This document shows, piece after piece, positions 36,807 through 41,299 of a DNA stretch of 64,000 nt (positions within the stretch are counted from its first letter, which is position 1; each line of letters begins with the position of its first letter). The stretch is from Candidatus Eremiobacteria bacterium. GTDB lineage: Bacteria > Vulcanimicrobiota > Vulcanimicrobiia > Vulcanimicrobiales > Vulcanimicrobiaceae. The notes beneath the pieces were generated by a model. It was not told the DNA's origin. It did no database searches and worked only from the letters and a program-made list of their open reading frames with translations. Where the stretch lies: contig CAVTRC010000001.1 in the NCBI GenBank assembly GCA_963737065.1, positions 1,248,001 through 1,312,000 on the forward strand, in the 5' to 3' direction. The position numbers and the translations under genes are program-made.

Positions 36807-37814
36807 GTGACCGGACATTTGCAAGCCGACGAACTGCTCATGATCGTCGCGATCGCAAGTTACGTGGTAGGCGGTATCGCGCTGCTTATCTATTTCTTCT
36901 CGCGCGAAGCGTGGTTACGTAATCTCGGCGCGCCGCTCGCGATCGTCGGATGCGTCGCGCAATTTGCGCAGCTGGTCGTGCGCTTCGAACTCACCGGCAT
37001 TTGGCCGCTGCTCAATCTCTACGGGTCGCTTTCGCTCTTCGCGGCGATGTCGGTCGCGATCTTCATCGGTTTTGCCATCCGCTACAAGCTGTGGTTCGCC
37101 GGCGGATTCGTGCTTGCAATCGCGGCGATCTTTCTTGCGTACGGGGTGACGTGGAATGAAGGCACGATGCCGCCCGTTCCGTCACTGCAGTCGTACTGGG
37201 CGAAAATTCACGTGCCGATCGTCGTGTCGTCGTACGCGGCGTTTCTCGTCGCCTTCGTCTTCTCGTGCATATATTTGATCAAGTACTACGCCGAACAGAA
37301 GATCGGTGAGAAGAGCGTTATCGCCTCCGCAGTATCCGATATCGGAAATATTGCGGTACGCACGACGTTCCAGTATCAGGCAGCCGCTGCTGCCGTTCGG
37401 GATGCCGGACTCGCGCGTGCCACCGCGCTATCGGGCGCCACGCCGCAAGTCGCCGCTGCGGCCGCCGCCGGAAACCCGCTCGCGCAATGGCTCGAAACAT
37501 TGCCGTCGCTCGCGCAACTCGACGTCATTGTGTATCGCGCGGTCGCAATCGGTCTGCCCTTGATCTCGCTCGGGATCATCACCGGCGCGGCGTGGGCAAA
37601 AGAAGCGTGGGGCGCGTATTGGCAGTGGGATCCAAAAGAAACCGCCGCTCTCTGTACGTGGATCATCTATCTCGCGTACATGCATCTGCACACGCGCAAC
37701 GCATGGCGCGGATTACGCACGAATTGGGTGAGCGTCGGCGGATTCGTGCTCGTGATCTTCACCTACCTCGGCGTCAACATCTGGATAAGCGGTTTGCACA
37801 GTTACAAAATGTAG
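36807..37814 (+). CDS. ccsA: Cytochrome c biogenesis heme lyase CcsA/ResC
   Basis: 'LQSYWAKIHV', WWD domain 'WAKEAWGAYWQWDPKET', 'GLHSY'. Confidence 0.95.
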   Translation: MTGHLQADELLMIVAIASYVVGGIALLIYFFSREAWLRNLGAPLAIVGCVAQFAQLVVRFELTGIWPLLNLYGSLSLFAAMSVAIFIGFAIRYKLWFAGGFVLAIAAIFLAYGVTWNEGTMPPVPSLQSYWAKIHVPIVVSSYAAFLVAFVFSCIYLIKYYAEQKIGEKSVIASAVSDIGNIAVRTTFQYQAAAAAVRDAGLARATALSGATPQVAAAAAAGNPLAQWLETLPSLAQLDVIVYRAVAIGLPLISLGIITGAAWAKEAWGAYWQWDPKETAALCTWIIYLAYMHLHTRNAWRGLRTNWVSVGGFVLVIFTYLGVNIWISGLHSYKM

Positions 37815-38235
37815 CGCCCGGCTGCGTCTCGGTGCTGGATGACAACGGCTGGGGCTTTGGCTGACGCACCACGTTACGTTCCTCGGTGACGGCGGCGGCA
37901 AGATCGGGGCGTCAACGCCGCCAGTTGATAAGTTGCAACGCCGCGCTGATGAAATGCGTCTGCCGTTATGAGCCTGAGGCCGCGTGGCAGAATCAGCGTT
38001 GGGCCTTTCGTTGTGAGCGGCGCATTGACGGGACACGCGGTGTGCAAGCGCGAGGAGAGCCACGCACGATGAGGATGCTGATGCGGTCGGGACCGTTCGA
38101 ACACGAAAACGCTCGAGATTCCCAATGTATATTTCATAGTCTCAGGTCGCCAAATGTAGACACTTCTTTTAAGGTGCCTACTGGAGTTGACCCGCTTCCG
38201 TGGAGACTTTCAATCTTACAGAGAAAGGTCTCCAT

Positions 38236-38547
38236 ATGGCAAAGCGCCCCACCTATCCGCCGGAATTCCGGCATAGGATCCTCGAGCTGGTCGGTTCCGG
38301 CCGCAGCGTGAACTCCGTCGCGGTCGAATTTCAAGTTGCTCGACAATCGATCGTGAACTGGCTGAAGCAAGACGACGTTGATACGGGCCGCCGCGACGGC
38401 GGTTTAACAACGGACGAACGCAAAGAACTTGCGGCACTGCGCCGTGAAAATAAGCGCTTAAAACTCGAAGCGGAAATCCTGTCAAAAGCCGCGGCCTGGT
38501 TCGCTCGGGAAACGCACGCGGTTCCGAGCAAATCTTCGGATTCATAA
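38236..38547 (+). CDS. IS3 transposase OrfA (HTH + leucine zipper)
   Basis: 'YPPEFR...SVAVEFQV...NWLKQ...LRRENKRLKLEAEILSKAAAWFA'. Confidence 0.93.
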   Translation: MAKRPTYPPEFRHRILELVGSGRSVNSVAVEFQVARQSIVNWLKQDDVDTGRRDGGLTTDERKELAALRRENKRLKLEAEILSKAAAWFARETHAVPSKSSDS

Positions 38548-38934
38548 AGGCGTACCAGGCCAACTATACGATTACGATGCTGTGTCATGTGCTCGACGTT
38601 TCCCCGAGCGGATACTACGCGTGGTGCAACCGATCGCCGTCGAAGCGCCGCCAAGACGACATCGTTCTCGGCGATCAGATCGATGCGTTCTATCGGAAGT
38701 CGTATGGTATTTACGGCCGTCCGCGCTTGCATGCGGATCTTCGCGAAGCCGGCATTCGGATCTCCGGAAAGCGCCTTGCGCGGTTGATGCGCGAACGCGG
38801 AATTGTCGGCGTTTCTCGGAGGAAATCCACAGTCACGACCATACGCGATCGGGATTCGCGTCCGGCGCCTGATCTCGTTGAGCGCAATTTCCAAGCCGAT
38901 GGGCCTGACCAGCTTTGGGTCGCTGACATTACGT
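38544..38934 (+). pseudogene. IS3 OrfB, 5' part (ends ...QLWVADIT)
   Basis: 'LCHVLDVSPSGYYAW', 'YGRPRLHADL', 'APDLVERNF...PDQLWVADIT'; start uncertain (ATA overlapping the orfA stop, or frameshift fusion). Confidence 0.9.
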
Positions 38935-38948
38935 TGTATCTTGGACCG

Positions 38949-39130
38949 ACGCGGCGAACAACCGTCGCGAGGTGGGGATAGCACGGATATTACGTGAGGC
39001 AGCAACAGCCTGAGATGTAGATGTCGCACCCCACTGCATTTTCAGCGCCGCAGGAGATCGGACGATAGCAAAGACGTTGCTCATCGAGCGAAGAGTCTGG
39101 ATTTACAAGGCTGATCCGCGGGTGGCGCGA
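38949..39130 (+). ncRNA. Predicted IS110 bridge RNA (5' hairpin + target-binding loop + donor-binding loop)
   Basis: Manual pairing gives three stem-loop modules; guides GATATTACGT and GATGTAG match the target, GACGATAGC and TACAAG match the circle junction; ends approximate. Confidence 0.85.
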
Positions 39131-39155
39131 TTTCGATTTGAAATGTGGAGGCGCT

Positions 39156-40139
39156 GTGAAATTCATCGGGATTGATGTCTCTCGTGATAAGCTCGACTGC
39201 GCGGTAGTCGACGACTGTGGAACCGTTATTCAACGATCGCGAGCATTTAAGAATAGCGCTGATGGCGTCGATGCGCTCCTGAAGTGGGTCGGAAAAATCG
39301 CCAGTAAGGGGCACGCGCGGTTTGTCATCGAGGCAACGGCAGCCTATCACGAGATGGCCTCACTGCGCCTTGCGAAGACCGGTGAATTCGTCGCAATCGT
39401 GAACCCATTTCACGTGCGTTCTTTAGCGCGCGGGCTAGCCATGCTCAGTAAGAGTGACGCGATTGATGCGCTCGTCCTTGCGCAATATGGGCGTCTTGCA
39501 AAGCTGCGCCGATGGGTACCGCCAGCTGCGCAGCTTGTTGATATTCAGGCTCTTTTGCTGCGGCTCGATGCGATTGAATCAGACCTCTTGCGTGAGCAGA
39601 ATCGTCGCGAGCAGGCTGCAGCCAGAGAATCCGCGACGCTTGTGATTGGCTCGATTGACGCGAGTATCAAATTCCTAAAGCGTCAGCGGAAAAGCATCGA
39701 ATTCGCGATCAGCAAATCGATTGAAACCGCTCCGGGTATCGCGGATGACGTCGAGCGCTTACGCTCGATCCCCGGCGTGGGCGAAAAGACAGCAAACCGC
39801 ATGGCGACCATGCTGCGTATGCACGACTTTAAGTCGGCGCGTGAAGTGGCCGCCTTCTGCGGCCTCGTTCCGGTCGAGCATAAATCCGGAACGAGCGTCT
39901 ATCGCAAGCCGCGACTCTCGAAGGCCGGCAACCCAAGAATGCGGGCGGCTCTATACATGGTTGCAGTCGTCGCCATGCGGTTGAACCCCGACGTCAAGGC
40001 GCTTTACGATCGACTCGTAGGACGCGGTAAAGCAAAAATGGCGGCTCTCGGTGCGTGCATGCGTAAGATCGTTCAGATATGTTTCGGCGTACTGAAGTCG
40101 GGAAAAACGTACGCCCCGCAGGCTGTTGTTAGAGCTTGA
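39156..40139 (+). CDS. IS110-family DEDD recombinase/transposase (327 aa, intact)
   Basis: RuvC-like DEDD 'IGIDVS', 'VIEAT', 'KSDAIDA'; 'SIPGVG'; 'GLVPVEHKSGTS' serine loop; 'SKAGNPRMRAALY'; GGAGG RBS before GTG. Confidence 0.96.
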   Translation: MKFIGIDVSRDKLDCAVVDDCGTVIQRSRAFKNSADGVDALLKWVGKIASKGHARFVIEATAAYHEMASLRLAKTGEFVAIVNPFHVRSLARGLAMLSKSDAIDALVLAQYGRLAKLRRWVPPAAQLVDIQALLLRLDAIESDLLREQNRREQAAARESATLVIGSIDASIKFLKRQRKSIEFAISKSIETAPGIADDVERLRSIPGVGEKTANRMATMLRMHDFKSAREVAAFCGLVPVEHKSGTSVYRKPRLSKAGNPRMRAALYMVAVVAMRLNPDVKALYDRLVGRGKAKMAALGACMRKIVQICFGVLKSGKTYAPQAVVRA

Positions 40140-40156
40140 CTTCCCAGACGATATCT

Positions 40157-40614
40157 ATATCCCGACCTGGGGTGGATTCGTATACCTCGCAATTGTGCTC
40201 GATGCTTACAGTCGTCGAGTCGTCGGCTGGGCACCTGCTAATCACTTACGCACCGAACTTGTTCTGCAAGCGCTCAACTCAGCAATCTATCGGCGACGGC
40301 CGGAAAACGTTATCCATCACTCGGATCAAGGCTGCCAATACACCTCAATCGCCTTCGGCCTGCGGTGTCGCGAAGCCAAGGTACGCCCGTCGATGGGTTC
40401 AGTCGGTGATGCATACGATAACGCGATGTGCGAGAGTTTCAACGCAACGCTCGAATGCGAACTACTTGCGCGAAGTTCGTTCAAAAGCCAGCGTGAAGCT
40501 GAACAAGCGATCTTCGCGTATATCGAGGGTTTCTACAACCCGCATCGCCGGCATTCCGCAATCGGGTATCTCTCACCGAACAACTTCGAGCGCCGCATGA
40601 GTCATGCCGCTTGA
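40157..40614 (+). pseudogene. IS3 OrfB, 3' part (YIPTW...)
   Basis: 'YLAIVLDAYSRRVVGW', 'HHSDQGCQYTS', 'DNAMCESFNATLECE', 'FYNPHRRHSAIGYLSP'. Confidence 0.93.
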
Positions 40615-40720
40615 TGTCCAAGTCGCATTTCTCCGCGAAAGCGGGTCAACTCCAGTGGGCATCGGGCGGCGTTGTTGGTCAGCAAACCAATTACACCAAC
40701 GAAGGGGCGCTAGTTAAGGG

Positions 40721-41299
40721 ATGTTAGTTCTCGTTTTTCCGTTTATTCTCGCAACGCAACTACTTGCGCAAGCTACTCCAGAACCGTGGGCACATTACGA
40801 ATTGGCAGGAAGCTCCCTTAGGCAATTCGCTGCCAGCTATGACGCAGAAGTGCGCGGCAAGGAATCGCAATTTGCTGGTACAATCGTCCGCATCTCTAAA
40901 CTTGTTGACGGCGGAAGTCAGGTGACATTCGAGCGAAAAACCGGACAGCCAATGGGCTTTCGAGTTACGCCGGATAATAAGGTCGTTGCTGCATCTGCGT
41001 TGCAAGAATCAAATACAGAAGGCGTCCCGTTTGCGGACGCCCGCGCTATGGCGATCACCTACGACGCCTGGAAGGCGGGTCAAGTTAAAATTCCAGAGTC
41101 GGCCGCTGCGTTCAACGCAGATCGGTTCAGCGTCAGCGAACGCGGAATATTCAATTATCCCACGGGCTTGCCCGGATACTACGTAACATTCCAGCCCATC
41201 GGCAACGTCCCAAAAGTGGGGCGGGGGTGTCCTCCAACCCGAAACTATCGAGTCGATCCGAACACGTGGCAGGTGACCGAAGAACCAATTATTTGCTAA
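40721..41299 (+). CDS. Secreted hypothetical protein
   Basis: Signal-peptide-like N-terminus, 192 aa, visibly more AT-rich than core genes, two C-terminal Cys. Confidence 0.7.
   Translation: MLVLVFPFILATQLLAQATPEPWAHYELAGSSLRQFAASYDAEVRGKESQFAGTIVRISKLVDGGSQVTFERKTGQPMGFRVTPDNKVVAASALQESNTEGVPFADARAMAITYDAWKAGQVKIPESAAAFNADRFSVSERGIFNYPTGLPGYYVTFQPIGNVPKVGRGCPPTRNYRVDPNTWQVTEEPIIC

Follow-up and report, generated by a model that had tools for sequence, protein, structure and literature searches.

An IS110-family insertion sequence in Candidatus Eremiobacteria with a predicted bridge RNA and a target in an IS3-family transposase gene

The 64,000-nucleotide stretch of a Candidatus Eremiobacteria genome analyzed here (contig CAVTRC010000001.1 of GenBank assembly GCA_963737065.1, positions 1,248,001 to 1,312,000; hereafter the window) contains an IS110-family insertion sequence at 38935-40156, whose left end had been read in an initial annotation as encoding a bridge RNA with four guides. 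The locus raises the question of whether this is a complete RNA-guided recombination system, and which DNA its guides select. We find that 38935-40156 is very probably a complete IS621-type IS110 insertion sequence, consisting of a recombinase with DEDD and serine catalytic residues and a bridge RNA of ~180 nt within a left end of ~200 nt. The anatomy of the element, its catalytic residues, the covariation of the RNA structure, the covariation of guides with flanks, and the site-specific occupancy of its target are established here. From these sequences, the element is probably a genuine bridge-RNA system, and probably an active one.

The junctions of the element lie exactly where they had been placed. 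The left junction reads GACATTAC-GT-TGTATC (38925-38940), and the right junction reads GACGATAT-CT-ATATC (40147-40161). The four proposed guide strings are also found at the positions given for them, with GATATTACGT at 38986-38995, GATGTAG at 39014-39020, GACGATAGC at 39061-39069, and TACAAG at 39104-39109. The insert contains one gene, preceded by 221 nt of non-coding DNA (38935-39155) and followed by 17 nt after the stop codon. No inverted repeat linking the two ends of the element was found, as none of 18 inverted-repeat pairs joins the termini. There is a perfect 10-nt inverted repeat between 39003-39012, in the loop of the inner hairpin of the target module, and 40119-40128, at the 3' end of the recombinase gene, which is probably a chance occurrence.

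The element was compared with homologues at 3 loci from species genomes and 76 loci from metagenomes. Left ends were extracted from the 48 loci with at least 150 nt upstream of the gene, and the 34 distinct left ends were aligned. The upstream analysis was done without L042, L045, L046, L055, L057, and L064, where the upstream sequence is too short, and the right-end analysis without L044, L045, and L097, where the right end was not located, and L059, L080, and L101, which reach the contig end. The very divergent L097 was also left out of the test of the left target (LT). The left end TGTAT is invariant in 34/34 aligned left ends, and the right end, ...GACGGTATCT, is nearly invariant, so that both junctions are fixed in every locus. 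In L007, from a Polaromonas metagenome-assembled genome (MAG), the left junction contains an extra T (..CACAT-TTGTAT), reflecting either an indel or a shifted crossover.

The gene encodes a protein with both domains of an IS110 recombinase, PF01548 (DEDD_Tnp_IS110, residues 10-156, E 1.3e-22) and PF02371 (Transposase_20, residues 206-290, E 1.8e-25), each scoring above the curated cut-off. Residues 2-319 align by phmmer to the transposase of IS621 (Protein Data Bank code 8wt6) at E 7.4e-48, and to ISCro4 (code 9t56) at E 5.1e-51. Residues D11, E60, D102, D105, and S241-G242 of IS621 are described as its composite active site (PMC11208158), and they align with D7, E59, D101, D104, and S244-G245 of the window protein (the numbering of the Protein Data Bank chain is offset by +2). 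These five positions (D, E, D, D, S-G) are invariant across 36 aligned homologues, which bears out the proposal that the DEDD residues and the serine loop are intact.

The closest relatives of the recombinase (L039, L040, and L046) come from metagenomes and are 70% identical at the protein level, and the next, at ~59%, are found in Burkholderiales MAGs. A search of 200 genomes of relatives (E <= 1e-40) gave matches of ~31-37% identity plus one partial match at 65%, all of which were left out of the guide analysis. In a protein search of a plasmid collection, the matches were at most 43% identical and are annotated as "IS110 family transposase." The nearest full-length relatives are from metagenomes and from Burkholderiales MAGs, a distribution that suggests horizontal spread of the recombinase. 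For the CcsB-like protein encoded next to the element (36807-37811), the best named matches are in MAGs of Candidatus Eremiobacterota (including Baltobacteraceae and Vulcanimicrobiaceae) at 73-84% identity, so that the host probably belongs to this phylum. Given this poorly cultured group, and recombinases no closer than 70%, from metagenomes, the suggestion of a little-sampled lineage is plausible. A further IS110-family gene in the same genome (L036, G000:C1:2420663-2421601) is unrelated; its product is 34% identical to the window recombinase, it has two in-frame TGA codons, and it is probably a pseudogene.

If the left end encodes guides, they should change together with the flanking DNA in homologous elements, and this covariation had been named beforehand as a check. 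It was found for both target guides. The left target guide (LTG) block, 38986-38995, has 6.87 of 9 positions in common with the left flank, compared with a mean of 3.90 for permuted pairs, and 0/10,000 permutations attain the observed figure (n = 39 non-redundant loci). For the right target guide (RTG) block, 39012-39020, the reverse complement matches the right flank after the core at 4.94 of 7 positions compared with 3.71, again with 0/10,000 permutations (n = 32 non-redundant loci), and at right-flank positions 3-7 the flank agrees with the reverse complement of the guide in 69-100% of the homologues. Resolved by position, the match spans 9 nt for the LTG, core included, and the core with 5 further nt for the RTG, which together give a 14-nt target. 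A 14-nt target is also described for IS621 (PMC11208160). The 10-nt left guide read initially therefore covaries as proposed, but over the 9 nt 38987-38995, since G38986 matches in just 33% of homologues. In the window, the LTG ATATTACGT differs from the left target ACATTACGT at one position, where the guide has T and the top strand has C; paired with the bottom strand, this position would form an rU-dG wobble. Several homologues have been retargeted together with their guides; the LTG 9-mers are exact in L062, L079, L080, and L085, and the RTG matches over 8-9 nt in L071 and L076.

The donor guides are compared with the ends of the element itself. At position 5, a G-to-A change is present in both the left donor guide (LDG; GACGATAGC) and the right end (GACGATAT-CT) of the window element, L039, and L040. 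L046 has the right end of the window element (GACGATAT-CT), with its guide off the contig, and most other loci have GACGG in both places. A second matched change occurs in L099, with GTGATATC in both guide and right end. In the right donor guide (RDG), the core ACAAG shows no variation among the 34 aligned homologues, and the left end is equally constant. Donor covariation is limited to two changes, since the family shows almost no variation at the ends. Most family members also share a G/T mismatch between the LDG and the right end (GACGGTAGC versus GACGGTATC), so this mismatch is a trait of the family and not a sign of decay.

The consensus structure computed with RNAalifold from the 34 left ends begins with a 5' hairpin, which is followed by the target module and then the donor module. 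It has 38 base pairs, and compensatory changes are observed in 30 of them. In the alignment, 95.1% of the cells are paired, compared with 77.5% after column shuffling (0/500 shuffles reach the observed value), and the fraction falls to 36-45% when the partners are slid by 1-3 columns. All four proposed guides are situated in internal loops of this structure, outside its helices. Most of the stems that had been drawn by eye are recovered. The 5' hairpin GCGGCG/CGTCGC is lengthened by the fold to 7 bp (38950-56/38963-69, with one G-U pair), and the target-module stems GTGGGG/CCCCAC and AGGC/GCCT are part of the covariation-supported consensus, which also contains a second helix that had been overlooked. 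Of the proposed donor-module stem GATCGG/CTGATC, the 4 bp GATC/GATC are supported by covariation, but the last two pairs overlap the LDG. The outer donor stem GCGCC/GGCGC, which can be lengthened to GCGCCGC/GTGGCGC, is seen again in homologues in compensatory forms (for example, CACACC/GGTGTG and GCACCAC/GTGGTGC), but it is not significant per sequence against shuffles (72/200 are as good for the window). The coordinates of all features are given in Table 1.

Table 1. Features of the IS110-family element, its predicted bridge RNA, and the interrupted IS3 element (window coordinates)
Feature	Coordinates	Strand	Details
IS110-family (IS110/IS621-type) insertion sequence	38935..40156	+	1,222 bp; ends TGTAT... 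and ...GACGATATCT; ends kept in homologues
Bridge recombinase gene, 327 aa	39156..40139	+	GTG start preceded by GGAGG; start set by homology and ribosome-binding site
Left target (LT) plus first junction dinucleotide GT	38925..38934	+	Codons GAC ATT ACG (D-I-T) plus T opening the Tyr codon
Left donor (LD) GACGATAT plus core CT, right end of element	40147..40156	+	Right junction CT in 59/59 loci
Bridge RNA 5' stem-loop	38950..38969	+	Helix 1; 6/8 pairs with compensatory changes
Target-binding loop module	38969..39037	+	Helices 2-4; 15/18 pairs with compensatory changes
Target-module outer stem	38972-77/39029-34	+	Weakly extendable to 38969/39037
Target-module second helix	38981-85/39022-27	+	GCACG at 38981-85; in consensus structure; absent from initial annotation
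Target-module inner hairpin	38997-39011	+	Stem AGGC/GCCT 38997-39000/39008-11
Left target guide (LTG) ATATTACGT	38987..38995	+	8/9 match to left target top strand
Right target guide (RTG) GATGTAG	39014..39020	+	Complementary to right-junction CT-ATATC, one G-T
Donor-binding loop module	39045..39128	+	Possible outer stem 39045-51/39122-28; stem 39056-59/39113-16; inner stem-loop 39072-39098
Donor-module inner stem	39072-75/39095-98	+	Plus small hairpin 39077-79/39089-91
Left donor guide (LDG) GACGATAGC	39061..39069	+	8/9 match to right-end terminus GACGATATC
Right donor guide (RDG) TACAAGG	39104..39110	+	Complementary to circle-junction top strand (T)CT-TGTA; 7/7 with one G-T
Predicted -10 hexamer TATCTT	38937..38942	+	Begins 2 nt into left end
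Predicted -35 hexamer TTGACT	40136..40141	+	Overlaps stop codon; 15 nt from right end
Host IS3, left part	38182..38934	+	Left inverted repeat TGGAGTTGACCCGCTT, orfA, 5' part of orfB to W-V-A-D-I-T; HTH_21 E 7e-16
Host IS3, right part	40157..40654	+	Right target ATATC 40157-61, rest of orfB, right inverted repeat; rve E 4.5e-19 from profile position 15

The DNA interrupted by the element is itself an insertion sequence. Members of the IS3 family are about 1.2-1.5 kb long, with terminal inverted repeats that begin with TG and a transposase encoded in two frames that has HTH and rve (DDE) domains. The host element spans 38182-40654 and measures 1,251 bp without the insert, with perfect 16-bp terminal inverted repeats (TGGAGTTGACCCGCTT). 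It has the domain HTH_21 on the left and rve, rve_3, and rve_2 on the right, where the reading frame continues as Y-I-P-T-W-G, and from its sequence it is a member of the IS3 family. As its natural target, the IS110 element uses the codons for D-I-T|Y-I around what we take to be the first catalytic aspartate of an IS3-family transposase, by analogy with the W-x-x-D-x-T motif of retroviral-type integrases. The target reconstructed in the initial annotation is confirmed by uninterrupted related IS3 elements. Nine such elements (70-76% DNA identity) from genomes of relatives were examined, and seven of them read D-I-T-Y-[IV]-P contiguously, with a Thr codon of ACC or ACG; the exceptions are L119, with a stop at the Tyr codon, and L123, which is out of frame upstream.

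The genome (3.08 Mb in 2 contigs, 95% complete) contains two copies of the IS110 element, which are 100% identical over 38900-40200, with no difference in the flanks for at least 35 bp on either side. Each is inserted at the same point of an IS3 copy, and these two IS3 copies occupy different loci; the homology block that they share begins at 38182. The IS3 copies differ at 18 positions, 15 of them within a 52-bp patch of orfA (38292-38343), whereas the 1,222-bp IS110 element differs at 0. The patch resembles a tract introduced through gene conversion or recombination with a diverged third IS3 copy. A 3-bp direct repeat, AAG, borders the second IS3 copy (L002, G000:C1:65066-69366). The window copy lacks a target-site duplication (TAC on the left, 38182-38185, and GTG on the right, 40651-40657), which hints that it arose with a rearrangement between IS3 copies or an adjacent deletion. 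An uninterrupted copy of this IS3 was not found in the 95% complete genome. A 112-bp remnant at G000:C1:322005-322117 (L005) is 88% identical to the left end of the IS3.

To see which genes the family interrupts, 34 homologue right flanks were scanned for transposase domains. An IS3-type rve domain is present in 12/34; its match starts at profile position 14-15 in 11 of these and at 19 in L053, and the match of L055 is below the curated cut-off. The IS6-type domain DDE_Tnp_IS240 is present in 15/34, matched from profile position 10, and an IS1595-type domain in 1/34. No transposase domain was found in 6/34 of the flanks scanned. In all of the transposase-gene cases, the insertion divides the codons D-[I/E]-T|Y, which include the residue assigned, by the analogy above, as the first catalytic aspartate.

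A maximum-likelihood tree of 45 distinct recombinases pairs the window protein with L039 (100/99 support) in a mostly IS3-targeting group (9/12 rows), and the IS6-targeting elements fall in other groups. Target labels are clustered on the tree, with 9 changes compared with 16.9 when shuffled (0/200 as low); some labels were read by hand and not by Pfam scan (L060 was assigned to IS6 from a 25-aa flank, and duplicates inherited their labels). One clade of 16 rows has no transposase-gene targets, and by eye its flanks look like hairpins or repetitive extragenic palindromic (REP) sequences. Short palindromes occur in its left flanks (L054, L062, L071, L079-L092), such as GTTGGG...CCCAAC immediately ahead of the core. 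These sequences suggest that the targets of this clade are REP-like or terminator hairpins rather than transposase genes. L048 and L049 carry near-identical IS110 elements, one in an IS3 rve gene and the other in a non-transposase open reading frame (ORF). This ORF has a weak protein-kinase match below the cut-off and a look-alike site, ...CT-ACATCAC, and the insertion resembles a natural off-target event.

The two junctions differ in how they vary. Among the 39 non-redundant loci, 28 have C as the first core base of the left junction, 6 have G, 3 have T, and 2 have A, and the LTG bears G, C, A, or T at this position. The right junction is CT in 59/59 loci. The window element has GT on the left, in agreement with the Thr codon ACG and with its guide, and CT on the right. 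Top-strand cleavage is described as occurring immediately 3' of the core, followed by exchange (PMC11208158). Junctions defined by the top strand in this way would keep the target core on the left and the donor core on the right, as is the pattern in these natural insertions, whose loci are not all independent. A random resolution of the 2-nt heteroduplex is disfavored, because it should leave non-C bases on the right and none is seen in 59 loci. On balance, we favor the interpretation that this clade specializes in parasitizing insertion sequences by way of the D-[I/E]-T-Y DNA of RNase-H-fold DDE transposases. It would have moved between IS3, IS6, and IS1595 hosts by small guide changes (GACATYAC..ACATC to GACGAGAC..ACGTC) that track a homologous protein motif, and donor and target cores would not need to match at the first base.

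Joining of the right end to the left end (RE-LE) yields TTGACT-17 nt-TATCTT. TTGAC is present at a fixed distance from the end in 55/59 right ends, and the integrated copy contains 0 promoter-like sites by the same kind of rule. A promoter thus appears to be rebuilt across the RE-LE junction, with its function predicted from the hexamers. Together with target guides that include the core and the donor loop, this junction promoter bears out the layout of an IS621-type bispecific bridge RNA that had been proposed. Transcription, binding of the RNA by the protein, strand exchange, and current activity would then follow IS621 by analogy. In the proposed cycle, excision would join the right end to the left end, and the junction would form a sigma-70-type promoter with its -35 hexamer from the right end and its -10 hexamer from the left end. 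This promoter may drive the bridge RNA and, probably, the recombinase. The donor-binding loop would pair with the circle junction through the LDG and the RDG, and in the last step a recombinase tetramer would exchange strands beside the core. Insertion into the D-I-T|Y-I coding DNA would split and inactivate the IS3-family transposase gene.

Several observations weigh against a functional bridge-RNA system. There are only two independent matched donor changes, those of the window clade and L099, and donor differences are uncompensated in L054 and L074 and in the GACGGCAT ends of L049, L051, L056, and L066-68. The LDG of the window carries one G-versus-T mismatch to the right end, and its LTG and RTG need one wobble each. 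Among the homologues, L083, L084, L089, and L054 match their flank poorly (LT or right target). The minimum-free-energy fold of the window sequence alone is not unusually stable (z = -0.93). A search of Rfam (evalue mode, 38000-41000) gave no match to a bridge-RNA family and one chance match (E 5.6), which is probably explained by the absence of any bridge-RNA family from that database. In addition, the two copies in the genome might not be independent insertions.

This last point leads to the alternative that survives best, which is that a genuine IS110 element was inserted once into the IS3, and that the composite IS3::IS110 was later copied as a unit by IS3 transposase acting in trans. The identity of the IS110 element and its flanks of at least 35 bp in both copies would be expected in this case. 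Both copies are bounded by IS3 inverted repeats in different surroundings, so that movement of the IS3 type did occur, and the AAG duplication of the second copy is typical of IS3. However, the interrupted orfB cannot supply transposase, and the intact copy of this IS3 that could do so was not found in the genome at 95% completeness. The 18 differences in the IS3 parts against 0 in the IS110 element also speak against joint copying, though weakly, as 15 of the 18 lie in one patch and may reflect a single conversion event. Furthermore, the equivalent site is occupied in 12/34 homologue right flanks, all of them IS3-family genes, and repeated independent targeting is therefore normal behavior for the family. 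We regard copying of the composite as possible and as the less likely account of the second copy.

It is improbable that the element is an immobile relic that merely looks intact and can neither excise nor insert. It is present in just two copies, both in the same kind of site, and its guides pair imperfectly, with one mismatch between LDG and right end and one wobble each for LTG and RTG. Against this, the ORF is open with every catalytic residue kept, the two genome copies are identical, the junction promoter hexamers are intact, and the LDG mismatch is shared by the family. Finally, the view that the guides are chance similarities in what is merely a 5' untranslated region or promoter region can be effectively dismissed: each match is short, and in 20,000 mononucleotide shuffles of the 195-nt left end an LTG-type match arises 87 times, an RTG-type 966, an LDG-type 388, and an RDG-type 806 (0.4-4.8% singly, with the RTG and RDG types at 4-5%), but all four occur together in 0/20,000 shuffles, and across the family the guide positions change in step with the flanks and sit in internal loops of a structure that is supported by covariation and its controls.

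Unlike IS621, for which the natural targets are REP-like, the window element targets coding DNA of an IS3 transposase. Its protein is just a distant homologue of the IS621 recombinase by phmmer, and related DNA is not implied. A further difference is that the first core base of the target is G and that of the donor is C, and the LTG of the clade has G, C, A, or T at this position while the donor is always CT. Otherwise the similarity to IS621, as far as it is described in PMC11208160 and PMC11208158, is close. The recombinases have 327 and 326 aa, can be aligned end to end, and both keep the DEDD and Ser-Gly residues. In both elements, the bridge RNA (predicted in the window element) is situated in the left end upstream of the gene, with a 5' hairpin followed by loops for the target and the donor. 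Both share a 9-nt LTG that includes the core, a short RTG that includes the core, a CT donor core, and an RE-LE junction promoter, which in the window element is likewise predicted. The RTG of the window family covaries over 5 positions after the core; the methods of Durrant et al. give a four-base RTG (PMC11208160). By sequence, the closest relative among solved structures is the ISCro4 transposase (9t56, the molecule name being that of the depositors).

With respect to its target, the element resembles ISEc21, an IS110-family element. The natural target of ISEc21 is described as the conserved coding sequence for the DDE catalytic domain of IS3-family transposases, and its circle carries a junction promoter (10.1101/2024.04.26.591405). 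The two elements share an upstream non-coding region, an IS3 transposase target, and a circle-junction promoter, which is predicted in the window element. Insertion of ISEc21 is reported for the codons surrounding the second D of DDE; the window element lies two codons beyond the first D (D-I-T|Y). By their descriptions the two are also set apart in size, as ISEc21 belongs to a cluster of 345-385-aa transposases, and IS621 and IS492 to a 315-330-aa branch that the 327-aa window protein fits. Elements of the IS1111 type, whose guide RNA is described as seekRNA (PMC11187229), likewise combine a DEDD transposase with RNA-guided choice of target. They are reported there to have a long non-coding region downstream of the gene and sub-terminal inverted repeats, whereas in the window element the long region is upstream (221 versus 17 nt) and no inverted repeat links the ends. 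ISEc21 was the only precedent found in the literature, and nothing was found on an IS110 element targeting first-D codons, IS6, or IS1595; the tables in the supplements to Durrant et al. and Siddiquee et al., which were outside this search, may list such targets.

These results leave the known bridge-RNA mechanism unchanged. They describe a compact orthologue (a 327-aa bridge recombinase plus an RNA of ~180 nt), distant from IS621, that is a candidate for orthologue screening because its target, donor, four guides, and predicted promoter are all readable from the sequence. The natural insertions of the family also form a data set on the tolerance of mismatches at the first core position. For the biology of the family, the element and its relatives repeatedly disrupt other insertion sequences at catalytic-aspartate codons, which widens the case of ISEc21 to another motif and to three IS families.

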